Source: an uncultured Gammaproteobacteria bacterium (lineage in GTDB: Bacteria > Patescibacteriota > Microgenomatia > CAZETR01 > Amesbacteraceae). From it: a DNA stretch of 64,000 bases. Position 1 is the first letter of the stretch. Each line of letters begins with the position of its first letter. The position numbers and the translations under genes were made by a program. Of this stretch, positions 12,607 through 46,408 are shown piece by piece. The stretch is taken from the NCBI GenBank assembly GCA_964518565.1, contig CAZFGX010000001.1, positions 360,409 through 424,408 of the forward strand, in the 5' to 3' direction. The notes below the pieces were generated by a model. That model was not told where the DNA came from, did not search any database, and was given only the letters and a program-made list of their open reading frames with translations.

Positions 12607-12678
12607 GTGAGGCGACTGGGACTCGAACCCAGAACCCACAGCTTAAAAGGCTGGTGCTCTACCATTGAGCTATCGCCC
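12607..12678 (-). tRNA. tRNA-Lys (anticodon TTT)
   Basis: reverse complement GGGGCGATAGCTCAATGGTAGAGCACCAGCCTTTTAAGCTGTGGGTTCTGGGTTCGAGTCCCAGTCGCCTCA folds as a cloverleaf; anticodon loop CTTTTAA; T-arm GGTTCGAGTCC; no encoded CCA. Confidence 0.85.
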
Positions 12679-12732
12679 CAGAAGGGGTAATCTGGTCAAT
12701 TATAGCCTCTCTTTCGCTTTCCTGCACCTGAG

Positions 12733-13304: not shown

Positions 13305-13376
13305 GGCCTCATCGTCTAGCGGCTAGGACACCGGGCTTTCATCCCGGTAACCGGGGTTCGATTCCCCGTGAGGTCA
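13305..13376 (+). tRNA. tRNA-Glu (anticodon TTC)
   Basis: GGCCTCATCGTCTAGCGGCTAGGACACCGGGCTTTCATCCCGGTAACCGGGGTTCGATTCCCCGTGAGGTCA folds as a cloverleaf; anticodon loop CTTTCAT. Confidence 0.85.
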
Positions 13377-13481
13377 CAAATTATATCCTATAATATTTAC
13401 TTCTTGGGCAATTTTTGCTATACTTCAGCCTCACTCTCGCGCATTGAAAAATTGTGAACTGAAACTTTTGTAGGAGGCTGT

Positions 13482-40806: not shown

Positions 40807-43098
40807 ATGAAATACATTAAATGGTTTTCCGAACTTCATAAAAACGATGTAGATATCGCTGGCGGCAAAGGCGCCAATTTGGGCGAGCTAACATCTGCCA
40901 ATATTCCGGTACCTCCAGGATTTGTCGTTCTATCTACTGCGTATTTCTATTTTCTCGACCACAACAATCTTCGGCCCAAAATCAAAGAAGTGCTCTCTGG
41001 CTGTGATGTAAACAATCCTGATCAGCTCAAAAAAGCTGCCGACAGTGTTCAAAAGCTATTAGCTTCTGGTGAAATGCCTAGTGATCTGTCTCAAGAAATT
41101 ATCACCAGTTATCACGAACTGGCCAAACAGCATCGTGGACATATGGAAAATTTAGCTGTTGCGGTACGTTCTTCAGCCACAGCCGAAGATTTACCAGACG
41201 CTTCGTTCGCTGGCCAACAAGAATCATATTTAAATATTAGCGGCGACGCGAATGTGGTTCTCAAAATTCGTGAATGCTGGGAGTCATTATTTGGTCAGCG
41301 GAGTATTTTTTACCGAGTACAAAAAAACTACGACCATTTCAAAGTCGGTATCGCTGTACCCATCCAAGCTATGATCCAGTCCGAAGTTTCTGGAGTTATG
41401 TTCACAGTCGACCCGATTAGCAAAGACAAAGACAAATTAGTCATCGAAGCCGTCTGGGGATTGGGAGATTATATTGTCCAGGGTGTGGTTACCCCGGATC
41501 ATTTTGAAATCTCCAAGTCTCAATCCAAAATTCTTGGCAAACAACTTAGTACTCAAGAGGTCAAAGAAATCCGCAATAGTCAGGGAGTAAAACAAGAAGC
41601 AGTGCCAAAAAACGAACAATCTATCCAAAAGATTTCCGATGCCCACGTTTTAGAATTAGCTGAACTCGGTAAAAAAATCCACCAGCATTATTTTTTCCCT
41701 CAGGATATCGAGTGGGCCTATGCCAATAACACCCTCTATATCACTCAAGCCCGACCCATCACCACCCTGGGCGACGAATCAGCTAAAGCCACTACCCCTA
41801 AAAACCCCACCATTTCCCTACAAAAACTGCTTACTGGTTCCCCAGCTTCCCCAGGGCTAATCTCAGGTCCTGTCCGACTTGTACCTGATATTAAGCAGCT
41901 GGATAAGGTGAAAAATGGGGATATTTTGGTGACTGAAATGACCACGCCAGACTTTGTTCCTGCTATGAAACGAGCTGCAGGCATTATTACCGATCGAGGA
42001 GGACTCACATCTCATGCTGCCATCGTCTCACGCGAGCTGGGTGTTCCGTGTATCGTAGGTACTACCACTGCGACCAAAGCACTCAAAGATGGCATGATTG
42101 TCACCCTCAATGGTTCTACAGGCGATGTATATGCCGGTACGTTGACCAAAACTCAAATGAGCGTGTTGGCTCCCAAAGCTGAGACAGAGTATGAAGATCA
42201 TACTACCGCTACCAAATTATATGTAAATCTAGCCGAGCCCGATCTGGCTGAAAAAATCAGTCAAAAACATGTCGATGGTGTTGGATTATTGCGTGCCGAA
42301 TTTATGATTGCTGGTATCGGGGTTCATCCAAAAAAAATGATAGCCGATGGTAAGTCGGATCAATATATCGACAAATTGGCCGAACAGCTTGGCCAGTTTT
42401 GTAAAGCCTTTTTCCCTCGACCTGTCATCTACCGAGCCACAGATTTCAAAACCAATGAGTACCGCAGTTTAAAAGGTGGAGAGTTATATGAACCTCAAGA
42501 ATCAAATCCTATGTTAGGGTTTCGTGGAGCGTATCGGTATATTAAAACTCCAGAAGTCTTTGCTTTAGAGCTCGAAGCTATCAAAAAAGTTCGTAACAAG
42601 TTGGGTCTCACCAATCTCTGGCTAATGATCCCTTTTGTTTCTACTGTCAATGAAATGACAGAGGTCAAAAAATTAGTCGCTGGTGCCGGCTTGTATCGTT
42701 CCGCTACCTTCAAACTATTTATGATGGTCGAAATTCCTGCTAATGTCATATTGTTGGATCAATTTATCGACGTTGGTATTGATGGAGTGTCTATCGGTAG
42801 TAACGACCTAACCATGTTGACACTTGGTATCGACCGCGACAATTCTGAAGTAGCGCCAAATTTCGATGAACGTAACCCTGCTGTCATGTGGGCACTAGAA
42901 AAAACCGTCCGCACATGTGCTCAACGCGGCATTATGTGTGGAATTTGTGGCCAAGCTCCTTCAGAATACCCCGAACTTGTAGAAAAGCTGGTAGAGTGGG
43001 GAATCACCAGTATTTCTATCAATCCCGATGCCATTGCTCGAACCCGTGATACCATCTTTCATGCGGAACAAAAATTTATTTCCAAAAACAAAAAATGA
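40807..43098 (+). CDS. ppsA: phosphoenolpyruvate synthase / PEP-utilizing enzyme (pyruvate, water dikinase)
   Basis: N-terminal ATP-grasp motif GGKGANLGEL, phosphohistidine domain GGLTSHAAIVSRELGVPCIVG, C-terminal PEP-utilizing TIM barrel. Confidence 0.85.
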   Translation: MKYIKWFSELHKNDVDIAGGKGANLGELTSANIPVPPGFVVLSTAYFYFLDHNNLRPKIKEVLSGCDVNNPDQLKKAADSVQKLLASGEMPSDLSQEIITSYHELAKQHRGHMENLAVAVRSSATAEDLPDASFAGQQESYLNISGDANVVLKIRECWESLFGQRSIFYRVQKNYDHFKVGIAVPIQAMIQSEVSGVMFTVDPISKDKDKLVIEAVWGLGDYIVQGVVTPDHFEISKSQSKILGKQLSTQEVKEIRNSQGVKQEAVPKNEQSIQKISDAHVLELAELGKKIHQHYFFPQDIEWAYANNTLYITQARPITTLGDESAKATTPKNPTISLQKLLTGSPASPGLISGPVRLVPDIKQLDKVKNGDILVTEMTTPDFVPAMKRAAGIITDRGGLTSHAAIVSRELGVPCIVGTTTATKALKDGMIVTLNGSTGDVYAGTLTKTQMSVLAPKAETEYEDHTTATKLYVNLAEPDLAEKISQKHVDGVGLLRAEFMIAGIGVHPKKMIADGKSDQYIDKLAEQLGQFCKAFFPRPVIYRATDFKTNEYRSLKGGELYEPQESNPMLGFRGAYRYIKTPEVFALELEAIKKVRNKLGLTNLWLMIPFVSTVNEMTEVKKLVAGAGLYRSATFKLFMMVEIPANVILLDQFIDVGIDGVSIGSNDLTMLTLGIDRDNSEVAPNFDERNPAVMWALEKTVRTCAQRGIMCGICGQAPSEYPELVEKLVEWGITSISINPDAIARTRDTIFHAEQKFISKNKK

Positions 43099-44351
43099 AA
43101 ATCTCTCAAGTATATGCCCGAGAAATTATTGACTCTCGTGCCAATCCTACAGTTGAAGCCGCAGTTTTTTTAGATAATGGTGAATATGGTGTTGCTTCGG
43201 CTCCTTCAGGTACATCTGGCAGCTATGAATCCGAAGAACTCCGTGATGGTGATCTTAATCGTTATTTAGGTATGGGTGTACTCAAGGCAGTTGGTCATGT
43301 AAATAACGAAATCAATCATGCCTTAGTAAATCAATCGTTCGACAGTCCGTTTCAATTAGATAACGCCTTGATCACTCTAGACGGCACACCAAACAAAACA
43401 AATCTGGGAGCCAATGCCATTTTAGCTGTTTCAATGGCTGCTACTAAAGCCATGGCTTCTGCTGCCAAGCTACCTTTGTATAAATATATTGCAACACTAG
43501 CTAGTAATACTTCACCACTGTTTATTCCTTCACCAGTTTTCAACATGATCAATGGCGGTCTGCACGGCGCTGGTAATTTGGATTTTCAAGAATTTTTACT
43601 CATTCCTCGTCGAGTGGACACTTTTGCCAATCAACTACAAACAGGAATTATCATTTATCAAACCATCAAAAAATTACTCGCTCGTCGCGGTGCTATTCAT
43701 AGCGTGGGAGACGAAGGCGGATTTGCTCCAAATTTGTTCACAAATCTGGATGCTTTAGAAATCCTCAATGAAGCAATTGTTGAGACTCGCAAGCAACCTG
43801 TCACAGATGTAGAACTAGGTCTCGATGTAGCAGCAGACACATTTTATAAAGATGGTAGGTACACGATCAAAGACCGTTCCTCGCCTATGGAAACCGCCGA
43901 GTTTATCGAATATTTACGTGATTTAAACAACGAATATCATTTGCGACTTCTGGAAGACGCATTACACGAAGACGATTGGCGTGGTTGGACCAGTCTAACT
44001 GCCGAGCTGGGAAATCAGCTAACAGTCGTCGGTGATGACTTACTGGCTACAAACAAAGAGCGCGTCGCAAAAGCGATCAATGAAAAAGCCTGTTCAGCAG
44101 CGATTATCAAGCCAAATCAAATCGGAACCATTACAGAAACACTCGAAGTGGTCAAACAAGCCCGCAATGCCGGTTGGAAAATTGTCGTCTCTCATCGCTC
44201 AGGTGAAACGATGGATACTTTTATTGCCGATTTTGCCGTAGGTGTCAGTGCAGACTATGCCAAAATGGGCGCCCCAGCCCGAGGAGAACGTGTAGCCAAA
44301 TACAATCGCTTCTTGAGTATCGAATCAGAGCTGATGCAAAATAAAAGCTAA
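43095..44351 (+). CDS. eno: enolase
   Basis: N-terminus MKISQVYAREIIDSRANPTVEA; IKPNQIGT and SHRSGETMD motifs. Confidence 0.95.
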   Translation: MKISQVYAREIIDSRANPTVEAAVFLDNGEYGVASAPSGTSGSYESEELRDGDLNRYLGMGVLKAVGHVNNEINHALVNQSFDSPFQLDNALITLDGTPNKTNLGANAILAVSMAATKAMASAAKLPLYKYIATLASNTSPLFIPSPVFNMINGGLHGAGNLDFQEFLLIPRRVDTFANQLQTGIIIYQTIKKLLARRGAIHSVGDEGGFAPNLFTNLDALEILNEAIVETRKQPVTDVELGLDVAADTFYKDGRYTIKDRSSPMETAEFIEYLRDLNNEYHLRLLEDALHEDDWRGWTSLTAELGNQLTVVGDDLLATNKERVAKAINEKACSAAIIKPNQIGTITETLEVVKQARNAGWKIVVSHRSGETMDTFIADFAVGVSADYAKMGAPARGERVAKYNRFLSIESELMQNKS

Positions 44352-44359
44352 CACCCCAA

Positions 44360-44380
44360 CCCCTCTTAATTTAAGAGGGG
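44360..44380 (+). repeat. perfect palindrome CCCCTCTTAA-T-TTAAGAGGGG (hairpin; likely eno terminator and left boundary of DUF559 insert)
   Basis: 10-bp inverted arms directly after eno stop, 4 nt before DUF559 ATG. Confidence 0.7.
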
Positions 44381-44384
44381 CAAT

Positions 44385-44768
44385 ATGAAAAAAGTATTTC
44401 ATTTCAACAATAAAAATTTATTAGAGCGTAGACGACAATTAAGAAACAACCCATCTCCCCCTGAAATAATGCTTTGGGGGAAAATAAAAAATCGCCAACT
44501 TGGCTACAAATTTATCAGACAATACAGTGTCGACGGGTATGTGATAGACTTTTTCTGTCCTAAATTACATATAGCAATAGAAGTTGACGGAAAATATCAC
44601 CAACTCGAGTCTCGAAAAAAGTATGATATATATAGAGACAAGTGGCTGCTTGCTTTCAATATAAAGACTATTCGCATACCTGCAGTTGAAATTATGAACA
44701 ATGTTGAAAAAGTTATTACTAGTTTGATCCCCCTCTTGAATCAAGAGGGGGGTGGGGGGGTGTTATGA
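44385..44768 (+). CDS. DUF559 endonuclease-domain protein (Vsr/restriction-endonuclease-like fold)
   Basis: 127 aa; motifs EIMLW, GYKFIRQYSVDGYVIDFFCP, IAIEVDGKYH typical of DUF559. Confidence 0.7.
   Translation: MKKVFHFNNKNLLERRRQLRNNPSPPEIMLWGKIKNRQLGYKFIRQYSVDGYVIDFFCPKLHIAIEVDGKYHQLESRKKYDIYRDKWLLAFNIKTIRIPAVEIMNNVEKVITSLIPLLNQEGGGGVL
44729..44760 (+). repeat. palindrome CCCCCTCTTGA-A-TCAAGAGGGGG followed by G6TG7 homopolymer tract
   Basis: near-copy of the 44360 palindrome at the 3' end of the DUF559 gene, overlapping gpmI RBS/start. Confidence 0.7.
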
Positions 44769-46408
44769 CTCATCTAAAACCCGTAGTTCTGGCTATCTTA
44801 GACGGTTGGGGAATCGCCCCTTCGGGTGAGGGCAATGCTATTAGTCTGGCCAAGACGCCAAACATGTCCAAATTTTGGAGTGCATTTGTCCACACCCAAC
44901 TTATCGCTCATGGGGAATCTGTCGGACTCCCTAAGCGCGAACCGGGTAACACAGAAACAGGTCACTTAAATATTGGCGCAGGCAGTATTATTTACCAGGA
45001 TTTGCCTAGAATAAATATGTCTATTGCCGATGGCAGTTTCTTTCAAAACCAACAGCTCCAAGCTGCTGCCGCTCATGCCAAAAAATTTAATAGCGATGTA
45101 CATTTGTTGGGTTTGGTTGGTGGTGGTGGAGTTCATTCAGATTTGTCACATTTTTATGCGTTAATTCGCTTTTTACATGAACAAAATATCAACAATGTCT
45201 ATATTCATGTCTTCACAGATGGTCGAGATTCCCCACCCTCATCAGCAATCACCTATATCAACCAGCTCGAATCAGTTTTAAACCAGGAAAAAACTGGAAA
45301 AATTGCTTCTGTCATGGGCAGGTATTACGCTATGGATCGTGATTTTCGCTGGGATAGGACAGCCAAAGCCTACGAATGTCTGACGCATGGCACTGGCAAA
45401 TCAGCCGAATCTGTCCAGCAAGCTGTCTCAAATGCTTACTCCCAAAATTTAACCGATGAATTTATAGAACCAACAATTATCACTAAAGAAAAAAACATCC
45501 CCTTGGCACTGATCAAATCGAACGATGTGGCAATATTTGTTAATTTTCGTATCGACCGTCCTCGTCAGCTCACAAAAGCCTTTGTTCTAGACGACTTTGA
45601 AAATACTGCCAACACCGTCGGTTGGGACCCTTTTGCCACCAAATACCAAAAAAAACATGTCGCTGAAAATGAATCATCAAGTCGCCCCAAGCCTTTTACC
45701 CGAGGTTCAAAAATAGACAATCTCTTTTTTATTACAATGACTGAATATGAAAAAAATCTACCAGTCCAAATTGCCTTTCCACCTCAAGCAGTAGACAACC
45801 CCGTCGCACGAGTAATATCCGAACATGGACTACGCCAAATACACATGTCGGAATCCGAAAAAGAACGTTTTGTTACCTATTACTTCAATGGTCTGCGTGA
45901 CGCACCGTTTACAAGTGAAGAACATCTCATTGTCCCATCCCCAAAGGTACCTACATATGACAAAAAGCCAGAAATGTCTGCACGTGAACTCACGACTCAA
46001 GTAATAGACAAAATTACTTCCCAGGCGTACGACTTTATTGTGGTCAACTTTGCCAATCCGGATATGGTTGGCCACACAGGCAATATTCCAGCAGCAATTA
46101 AAGCTTGTGAAACAGTCGATGAGTGTATCGGTAAAATTGCAGATACTGTTTTAGCTATTGGTGGCGCTCTATTTGTCACGGCCGACCATGGCAATGTCGA
46201 AGAAATGATCAATCTGACAACAGGTCTGTCAGACACAGAGCACAATGCCAATCCAGTGCCAGCAATTATTGTTTCCAAAGAGACTCAGACCGCGTCACAA
46301 GTGCCTCAAGGTATTCTGGCCGATGTTGCCCCCACACTGCTTCATCTACTCCAGATTCCTATCCCCATCACTATGACTGGTCGCAATCTGCTTGGGAATA
46401 TACACTAA
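44765..46408 (+). CDS. gpmI: 2,3-bisphosphoglycerate-independent phosphoglycerate mutase
   Basis: N-terminus VVLAILDGWG; metalloenzyme motifs (TADHGN, SHVGH-like) and size. Confidence 0.9.
   Translation: MTHLKPVVLAILDGWGIAPSGEGNAISLAKTPNMSKFWSAFVHTQLIAHGESVGLPKREPGNTETGHLNIGAGSIIYQDLPRINMSIADGSFFQNQQLQAAAAHAKKFNSDVHLLGLVGGGGVHSDLSHFYALIRFLHEQNINNVYIHVFTDGRDSPPSSAITYINQLESVLNQEKTGKIASVMGRYYAMDRDFRWDRTAKAYECLTHGTGKSAESVQQAVSNAYSQNLTDEFIEPTIITKEKNIPLALIKSNDVAIFVNFRIDRPRQLTKAFVLDDFENTANTVGWDPFATKYQKKHVAENESSSRPKPFTRGSKIDNLFFITMTEYEKNLPVQIAFPPQAVDNPVARVISEHGLRQIHMSESEKERFVTYYFNGLRDAPFTSEEHLIVPSPKVPTYDKKPEMSARELTTQVIDKITSQAYDFIVVNFANPDMVGHTGNIPAAIKACETVDECIGKIADTVLAIGGALFVTADHGNVEEMINLTTGLSDTEHNANPVPAIIVSKETQTASQVPQGILADVAPTLLHLLQIPIPITMTGRNLLGNIH

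Follow-up and report, generated by a model that had tools for sequence, protein, structure and literature searches.

Why does a gene for a small DUF559 nuclease, bounded on either side by a G/C-rich palindrome, lie between the glycolytic genes eno and gpmI in a stretch of 64,000 nucleotides (nt) from contig CAZFGX010000001.1 (hereafter the window, by which we mean this whole analysed stretch of 64 kb)? We found that the gene and its flanks together form a cassette of ~415 bp, in which a structured repeat module is followed by the DUF559 gene and by a second, inverted module, and that this cassette is a lineage-specific insertion that entered as one piece between the eno stop codon and the gpmI start codon. 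We hold this descriptive part of our account with high confidence. Judged by their sequence code, the modules are of the class of repeats known as BoxC, PIT elements or triplex motifs (TM), and a triplex fold is predicted for the two modules. The features of the locus, with open reading frame abbreviated as ORF and amino acids as aa, are as follows.

43095–44351, plus strand: eno, encoding enolase (Pfam Enolase_N and Enolase_C), with the stop codon TAA at 44349–44351.
44350–44380, minus strand: left triplex-type module, consisting of a hairpin, a 2-nt linker and a G-rich tail.
44385–44768, plus strand: DUF559 nuclease ORF of 127 aa, YcjD-like, of the predicted Vsr-fold PD-(D/E)XK type.
44729–44764, plus strand: right triplex-type module, consisting of a hairpin, the linker GTGG and a tail, and holding the poly-G tract.
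44350–44764, no strand assigned: the whole cassette of ~415 bp, that is, module, DUF559 gene and inverted module, with the tails pointing outward.
44765–46408, plus strand: gpmI, encoding cofactor-independent phosphoglycerate mutase (iPGM; Pfam iPGM_N and Metalloenzyme).

The initial annotation of this DNA, made from its letters, had placed the DUF559-like ORF correctly, and the two near-identical palindromes that it described as bounding the gene are present, at 44360–44380 and 44729–44751. The ends of the unit reach further out than noted there, giving an extent of 44350–44764. The left end includes CACCCCAA and overlaps the eno stop codon, the last two bases of which (44350–44351) lie under the tail of the left module; the right end extends to the base before the gpmI ATG. 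This start codon, at 44765, directly abuts the right module and overlaps the stop codon of the DUF559 ORF (ATGA). By their Pfam domains the flanking genes are an SIS-type pgi, a ppsA-like gene with pyruvate phosphate dikinase and PEP-utilising domains, enolase and iPGM, an otherwise contiguous pgi-ppsA-eno-gpmI run that is interrupted by the cassette. The operon is not disrupted by its entry. Overlapping or abutting stop and start codons are frequent among the genes of the glycolytic run, ppsA and eno likewise sharing an ATGA.

Was the cassette gained here, or has it been lost by others? Enolase relatives, of which the best match is 74% identical, place the host among the Microgenomates near Candidatus Amesbacteria, within the candidate phyla radiation. 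The eno-gpmI junction was compared across related genomes, as had been proposed for a check, and none of 21 relatives has the cassette there. The two genes are separated by ~0–130 bp in 19 of the 21 relatives keeping the pgi-ppsA-eno-gpmI run, several of them with overlapping stop and start codons, and neither a DUF559 gene nor a G/C-rich palindrome was found at the eno-gpmI junction of those 19. The other two, both Amesbacteria relatives, hold an unrelated insert of ~1.1 kb (L011:5276–6295 and L012:5258–6280, each on the minus strand), which encodes a reversed, shortened and divergent enolase paralogue of ~340 aa (Pfam Enolase_N and Enolase_C) that is 31–37% identical to eno. Because these two genomes carry a different insert, the junction has been used for insertion more than once.

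The composition and relationships of the gene set it apart from its neighbours as well. The GC content of the gene body is 33%, versus 43% for eno, gpmI and the whole window, and identity to the closest of all DUF559 homologues is 49%. The nearest relatives carry their homologue after secF, including on another contig of the L002 assembly; within the window neither a second DUF559 copy nor a secDF locus was found. The suggestion that the unit is a selfish or mobile mini-element therefore stands in one part, that of a lineage-specific insertion of low GC content, whereas its actual mobility and the mechanism behind it are matters that we infer.

We then asked what the palindromes are. Palindrome A reads CCCCTCTTAA-T-TTAAGAGGGG on the plus strand and palindrome B reads CCCCCTCTTGA-A-TCAAGAGGGGG. 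When up to three mismatches are allowed, the degenerate palindrome pattern occurs exactly twice in the 64 kb, where 0.01 occurrences are expected, and none of 100 shuffles gave two. Folded as single-stranded DNA, the hairpins reach predicted energies of -8.4 to -11 kcal/mol (z = -4.3 to -5.1), a stability that none of the shuffled sequences equals. Each hairpin is part of a larger module that, read on one strand, comprises a pyrimidine 5' arm, a purine 3' arm, a short linker and a G-rich tail, the tail being a mirror of the purine arm in which an arm G is matched by G and an arm A by either A or T. The left module reads on the minus strand; its hairpin at 44380–44360 (CCCCTCTTAA-A-TTAAGAGGGG) has a 10-bp stem and a 1-nt loop and is followed by the linker TT (44359–44358) and the tail GGGGTGTT (44357–44350), whose match to the mirrored purine arm is 8 of 8. 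In the right module, the hairpin at 44729–44751 has an 11-bp stem and a 1-nt loop, and the linker GTGG (44752–44755) leads to the tail GGGGGTGTT (44756–44764), which mirrors the TCAAGAGGGGG purine arm at 9 of 9.

This anatomy is that of a known class. The intrastrand triplex motif (class II, purine motif) as defined by Holder in 2015 has three blocks, namely a C-rich stem of 6–15 nt, then, after a loop of 1–6 nt, a complementary G-rich stem, and after a further loop of 1–6 nt a second G-rich block that follows the triad code with at most one mismatch, and both modules of the window have this structure. The TM_ECO consensus is not matched by them, their arms, CCCC(C)TCTT(R)A, being of the same class and of another sequence family. 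The hairpin termini of the initial annotation are thus two inverted copies of a known kind of repeat and not generic palindromes; by sequence code both modules belong to the BoxC / PIT / intrastrand-triplex class, with triplex folding as a prediction. Rfam contained no relevant family, either for the region at permissive thresholds or for the whole window at gathering thresholds; the only Rfam and ARAGORN matches in the window were tRNA-Lys(UUU) at 12607–12679 on the minus strand and tRNA-Glu(UUC) at 13305–13377 on the plus strand.

The same anatomy bears on the poly-G tract, a G6-T-G7 run at 44747–44760 whose G7 belongs to the 3' end of the DUF559 ORF and is separated from the gpmI ATG by 4 nt. 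Its position had suggested a slipped-strand, phase-variable switch for gpmI or for the DUF559 gene, and the palindromes might in that case be ordinary terminators or products of chance. We find this explanation scarcely credible. Because the tail mirrors the purine arm, the poly-G tract is the putative third-strand segment of the right module and is conserved as such; the four gene-carrying assemblies encode an identical 127-aa product and hence have the same G-run length, and the gpmI frame is unaffected by a change in tract length. Intrinsic termination was likewise rejected, hairpin A being followed by CAATATG and hairpin B by GTGGGGGGG, with no T-run after either, minus strand included. 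Chance fits poorly with a pattern that is found twice against an expectation of 0.01, and no further copy of the palindromes occurs elsewhere in the window or in 205 kb of the relatives' loci, which also answers the concern that they might be terminators found genome-wide.

We read the flanks of the homologues and then those of 80 DUF559 loci from metagenomes, and nearly all of these genes have a hairpin of this type close by, with only pyrimidines in the 5' arm and only purines in the 3' arm. Across 84 DUF559 loci a mirror-code tail follows 136 of 169 pyrimidine/purine hairpins, compared with 57 on average and 73 at most when the tails are permuted among hairpins, and with 61 for a direct-repeat control. 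Arms and tails covary, in that hairpins with CCTCCCC have GGWGGGG tails in 36 cases and GGGGWGG in none, and hairpins with CCCCTCC have GGGGWGG tails in 31 cases and GGWGGGG in two (Fisher p = 1e-17 for the 2x2 table). At the W position, 38 tails have A and 29 have T. The distribution of linker lengths has a sharp peak at 3 nt, and some linkers are themselves small hairpins. At loci L083, L084, L125, L126 and L117 the tails flanking the gene are not complementary to one another, each instead mirroring its own hairpin. From the mirror covariation and the equivalence of A and T, it follows that the code is that of a purine-motif (reverse-Hoogsteen) intramolecular triplex, and not one of Watson-Crick pairing, Shine-Dalgarno pairing or terminal inverted repeats (TIRs). 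While single-stranded, a module could form a Watson-Crick hairpin, and the tail would then engage the purine arm of that hairpin by reverse-Hoogsteen contacts of the G·G, A·A and T·A types. A G-quadruplex may form as an alternative conformer of the modules; it does not predict the mirror covariation.

The genome of the closest relative has an arrangement of its own. At L052:3347–3452 the DUF559 gene after secF has no upstream module and two tandem identical modules downstream, the 13-nt tails of which mirror the purine arm even at a position where the stem is mismatched. Because the mirroring holds at this mismatch, it is the purine arm, rather than the pyrimidine arm, that the tail copies.

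The position of the modules next to start codons raises the question of whether they act in expression. They might be signals for DUF559 and its neighbours, working as mRNA hairpins that hide or supply a Shine-Dalgarno-like GGAGG, stabilise the transcript or attenuate a toxic nuclease, with their dispersal an unrelated matter. A purine arm or tail does lie 4–8 nt before the DUF559 ATG in many loci, and one also precedes the gene that comes next, which is gpmI in the window and pntAB in Sphingomonas. GGTGGGG is nonetheless as frequent as GGAGGGG, which does not fit Shine-Dalgarno pairing, and with A and T interchangeable at one tail position and no Shine-Dalgarno-like motif upstream of 32 of the 40 long ORFs in the window, we rejected the identification of the tails as Shine-Dalgarno or anti-Shine-Dalgarno sequences. 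The modules lie on opposite strands around the gene, so that only one of them is G-rich in the mRNA. PIT elements showed neither promoter nor terminator activity, and purine-motif triplexes cannot form in RNA (PMC4666352). Because of the latter point and of the opposite strands of the modules, a role at the level of DNA is indicated, and we regard a purely cis-regulatory explanation as very unlikely.

Next, we considered whether the association of gene and modules extends beyond this one locus. Counting only modules that are complete and have linkers no longer than 8 nt, we obtained a density of 2.35/kb at up to 250 bp from DUF559 genes and of 0.156/kb elsewhere on the same contigs, which makes the near-gene density ~15 times the same-contig background; in 416 kb of unrelated enolase loci the density was 0.014/kb. 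By locus, modules lie within 250 bp of the gene in 64 of the 84 cases under a strict definition and in 76 under a loose one, and on both sides in 54. The pairing of gene and module is thus general for YcjD-like DUF559 genes and crosses phyla. On some contigs (L128, L130 and L093) the same type of module is also dispersed away from the gene. DUF559 genes are 14-fold enriched among predicted programmed-inversion targets (PMC9881135), as is to be expected because the genes are bracketed by inverted repeats.

Some individual loci illustrate the settings in which these genes occur. On plasmid NZ_CP155755.1 of Sphingomonas parapaucimobilis (L146, 67228–67623), DUF559 is wedged between pntAA and pntAB of the transhydrogenase operon; the upstream module, composed of CCTCCCCGAAACGGGGAGG, a linker hairpin and GGAGGGGG, begins right after the pntAA stop codon, and the ATG of pntAB is preceded at 7 nt by a GGGGAGG arm, in the same operon-junction style as in the window. 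On plasmid pAQ6 of Picosynechococcus sp. PCC 7002 (L144, 21037–21402), several all-G modules (CCCCCAGAATGGGGG-tca-GGGGG) flank a DUF559 gene that lies between a PIN-domain gene and a DUF1156 gene, and on a Synechocystis plasmid (L145) DUF559 also adjoins DUF1156.

The protein encoded within the cassette matches Pfam DUF559 (PF04480) over residues 12–115, with 78.5 bits against a cut-off of 20.6 (E = 4e-22), and in an alignment of homologues its residues D55, E66 and H72 are invariant, leaving the D...E.D..H motif intact. A profile comparison with the PDB retrieved NGO0050 of N. gonorrhoeae (3hrl, E = 3e-21) and I-Bth0305I (3r3p, E = 0.015), and Foldseek matched the AlphaFold2 model (pLDDT 84) to the same two structures (3hrl, with a TM of 0.82 on the target in the sense of structural similarity; 3r3p, E = 6e-4). 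By sequence and model the protein looks like an active nuclease, its activity being a prediction. Sequence comparison indicates a member of the same family as YcjD and not an orthologue, the score of 47.6 bits against the NCBIfam YcjD equivalog (NF007294) being below the cut-off of 218 and the identity to any known DUF559 member only 25–49%. The last 13 codons of the ORF are encoded by the right module; in the AlphaFold2 model the C-terminal helix runs to residue 121, and the final four residues are poorly predicted.

The DUF559 family is very large, with 37,556 cluster representatives at E<=1e-3, most being stand-alone proteins of 110–170 aa, and 17,862 at E<=1e-10. We know of no substrate for the small DUF559 proteins. 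Membership in a defence system was considered and rejected, as PADLOC returned only weak matches to methyl-directed restriction nuclease domains. Compared with the PDB, the model (44385–44765) also resembles Toxoplasma and Tetrahymena mitoribosomal proteins and, weakly, R2 retrotransposon proteins, and because of these resemblances the fold may also bind structured nucleic acid.

Repeats of the BoxC / PIT / TM class have been catalogued for ~30 years, BoxC reportedly by Bachellier in the 1990s and PIT elements reportedly by Hoyne and Maher in 2000. To our knowledge they have no assigned function, spreading mechanism or partner protein. BoxC, the PIT elements (Hoyne and Maher 2000) and TM_ECO (Holder et al. 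NAR 2015, PMC4666352) are one and the same, and for TM_ECO the consensus is CCCTCNCCC-N3-6-GGGNGAGGG-N3-GGGNGAGGG. Single-stranded TM_ECO DNA forms a stable triplex in vitro, as seen by circular dichroism and nuclear magnetic resonance (PMC4666352). The same study reports that even close relatives among strains can differ widely in TM number and that TM loci show unusual rearrangement or instability, by a mechanism unknown to its authors, who found no transposase or integrase near TMs (PMC4666352). Among the cases that it names are Salmonella, which has no TM_ECO, and Enterobacter asburiae, with more than 300 TMs as against fewer than 30 in E. aerogenes.

Escherichia coli carries both a DUF559 gene, ycjD, and BoxC. 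The stop codon of K-12 ycjD falls within the loop of a degenerate module, and ~170 bp downstream there is a BoxC copy catalogued as eco:9_BoxC (BoxC list, PMC2267715 supplement); given 23 TMs in 4.6 Mb, we estimate the chance of such proximity at ~0.003. In an evenly spaced sample of E. coli chromosomes, the median number of BoxC-like places is 22 (range 17–33) where ycjD is present (n = 37) and 8.5 (range 2–20) where it is absent (n = 22; Mann-Whitney p = 9e-10), a correlation that is confounded by phylogroup and suggestive only. Strain 55989, which has ycjD and 29 places in our sample, agrees with the 29 TMs counted by Holder et al., who found 1 in IHE3034, a strain outside the sample (PMC4666352). 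The site of ycjD is that of the eefRABCD operon of other phylogroups; eef is inferred to have been lost at least twice, and eef-lacking strains carry ycjD (PMC12817139). As to the K-12 locus itself (L142, NC_000913.3, 1351040–1351407), a partial duplicate of the ycjD 3' end (ggagacggtgctggagaatattc...) lies downstream of the gene, followed by a half module (GAAAGGGTTAGGGG) and then by the full BoxC copy, an arrangement that looks like a rearrangement scar at a module.

These copy numbers are relevant to a housekeeping explanation, in which the DUF559 protein is a Vsr-like repair nuclease that processes replication-blocking triplexes on behalf of the host and the linkage reflects co-selection. 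The Vsr-family fold is consistent with this, as are the SOS response that Caulobacter VsrA (DUF559 domain) causes in a subset of cells lacking the partner methylase and the ability of PIT elements to block DNA polymerase in vitro (PMC4666352). Removal of modules predicts fewer BoxC copies in strains with ycjD, however, and more were observed; the bracketing of the gene by inverted modules, and their joint insertion into an otherwise module-free region, would also go unexplained. We consider such a maintenance role to be quite unlikely.

We are evenly divided on whether the nuclease and the modules form a cognate pair, working in a manner analogous to REP elements and their RAYT enzymes, and our confidence in any exact mechanism is lower than that. 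In the mechanism that we propose, the DUF559 nuclease would recognise or nick a folded module while this is transiently single-stranded, for instance at replication forks. Breaks would be repaired by recombination or gene conversion, through which modules could be maintained and spread, and the same repair would occasionally move the gene together with its two flanking modules. Such nuclease action could account for the known instability of TM loci. Because each hairpin is palindromic, the two hairpins are both direct and inverted repeats of each other, and recombination between them could invert or excise the DUF559 gene; excision would leave a single hairpin with both tails, a form seen in a few loci. 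A broader claim, which we put forward tentatively, is that YcjD-like DUF559 proteins may be dedicated nucleases for the folded triplex, in a REP-RAYT-like partnership with BoxC / PIT / TM repeats that would take in the candidate phyla radiation, Ignavibacteria, Cyanobacteria and Proteobacteria, including E. coli.

A number of observations weigh against a partnership of this kind. A PD-(D/E)XK hydrolase alone cannot perform strand transfer, and there is no biochemical or genetic result that links any DUF559 protein to triplex DNA. No triplex was detected in double-stranded DNA or by in vivo dimethyl sulphate footprinting (PMC4666352). Within the 64-kb window neither the gene nor the modules recur, the cassette has no visible target-site duplication, and within-species polymorphism was not found, all four assemblies with an identical enolase carrying the insert. 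Several E. coli lineages without ycjD still have 13–20 BoxC copies. DUF559 genes are rare on plasmids (11 of 72,556 records) and were found on only 4 viral contigs and in no phage records; for these reasons we rejected a phage or plasmid vehicle, and the DUF559 gene is not an aggressive mobile element. Finally, the modules occur in two opposite geometries, in that the tails face the gene in 37 loci and face away from it in 7, including the window.

This mixed tail geometry is therefore a poor fit to a classical TIR transposon. Such a transposon, or a miniature inverted-repeat transposable element (MITE), was rejected for the cassette, which has imperfect inverted ends (TAACACCCC... / ...GGGGTGTTA), no flanking duplication and no transposase domain; tails that are not Watson-Crick complementary, found at several loci, and the two geometries themselves also count against it.

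The geometry and the empty junctions of the relatives together bear on a further explanation, namely that DUF559 is a free-standing selfish gene, similar to a homing endonuclease, that targets, or recombines into, pre-existing triplex-motif doublets. The modules would then be an insertion site that is spread by other means, and not a substrate for propagation. 'Empty' doublets, consisting of a C-tail, hairpin 1, a spacer, hairpin 2 and a G-tail, do occur, some beside DUF559 genes and some at a distance from them, examples being those upstream in L054, those in L064 and L071 and the far copies in L093; the fold resembles that of I-Bth0305I, and TM loci are known hot spots of instability. However, no module is present at the eno-gpmI junction in the 21 relatives, so that the gene and both modules arrived there together. 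The commoner geometry, with tails facing the gene in 37 loci, is unlike the product of insertion into a doublet spacer, and the higher BoxC numbers of E. coli strains with ycjD would be left without an explanation. We therefore judge homing into a landing pad to be unlikely, and prefer the reading in which nuclease and modules act as a pair.

If that pairing is real, the nuclease may be the missing enzyme partner of BoxC and other triplex repeats. In the window, gene and repeats are combined as compactly as possible and cleanly inserted. Two questions that have stood apart would merge into one, which is whether YcjD/DUF559 cuts folded TM DNA and drives change at TM loci. An enzyme could then be named for the instability and spread of TMs, and a function for a family with >37,000 cluster representatives, which would become the first with a known specificity for a biological purine-motif triplex. 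For genome annotation, the pairing would explain the small 'endonuclease domain-containing' genes that recur wedged into operon junctions. The link between DUF559 and the modules appears to be undescribed; our literature search returned no paper mentioning both boxC and ycjD, and none linking DUF559 or ycjD to BoxC or to inverted-repeat mobile elements.

How, then, does the cassette compare with known systems? With BoxC / PIT / TM repeats the modules share the C-rich arm, short loop, G-rich arm, ~3-nt linker and second G-rich block with a purine-motif triad code, as well as an intergenic location, occurrence as single units or as inverted ('palindromic') pairs, and dispersal in some genomes. 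They differ in having CCCCTCTT... in place of CCCTCNCCC and in occurring twice in 64 kb, where they bracket a gene, whereas the literature gives BoxC / PIT / TM no associated enzyme and no nearby mobility genes (PMC4666352). The protein shares with the DUF559 family (YcjD, NGO0050 and VsrA) the PF04480 match, the D/E/H residues, a stand-alone length of ~120 aa and the fold. Vsr-fold homing endonucleases of the I-Bth0305I type (3r3p) have a related catalytic fold, and a selfish-gene lifestyle is plausible; those enzymes carry an additional DNA-binding domain and are encoded within group I introns or inteins, whereas the window gene is free-standing, intergenic and repeat-flanked. MITEs and insertion sequences with TIRs (Correia/NEMIS, and IS200/IS605 with subterminal hairpins) are similarly short, with inverted structured ends, an intergenic junction and gene-less derivatives, but the cassette has neither a transposase nor a target-site duplication, and its kind of end varies in geometry, with tails pointing in or out.

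A further parallel in organisation is with REP/REPIN-RAYT (TnpA-REP) systems, in which a single-copy nuclease gene is flanked by inverted copies of a structured repeat that is dispersed in the same genome. Inverted doublets, a mainly chromosomal distribution that is rare on plasmids and phages, and fewer repeats where the gene is absent are common to both. Flanking inverted modules are present in our cassette, and dispersal is seen on L128, L130 and L093 and in E. coli, with none elsewhere in the 64-kb window. The enzymes are different, RAYT being an HUH/Y1 (IS200/IS605-type) transposase that forms covalent intermediates on plain hairpins and DUF559 a predicted PD-(D/E)XK hydrolase, and the DUF559-associated repeat has in addition a third segment that could form a triplex. 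The likeness to REP-RAYT would accordingly be one of a possible way of working, by analogy, and not one of membership.

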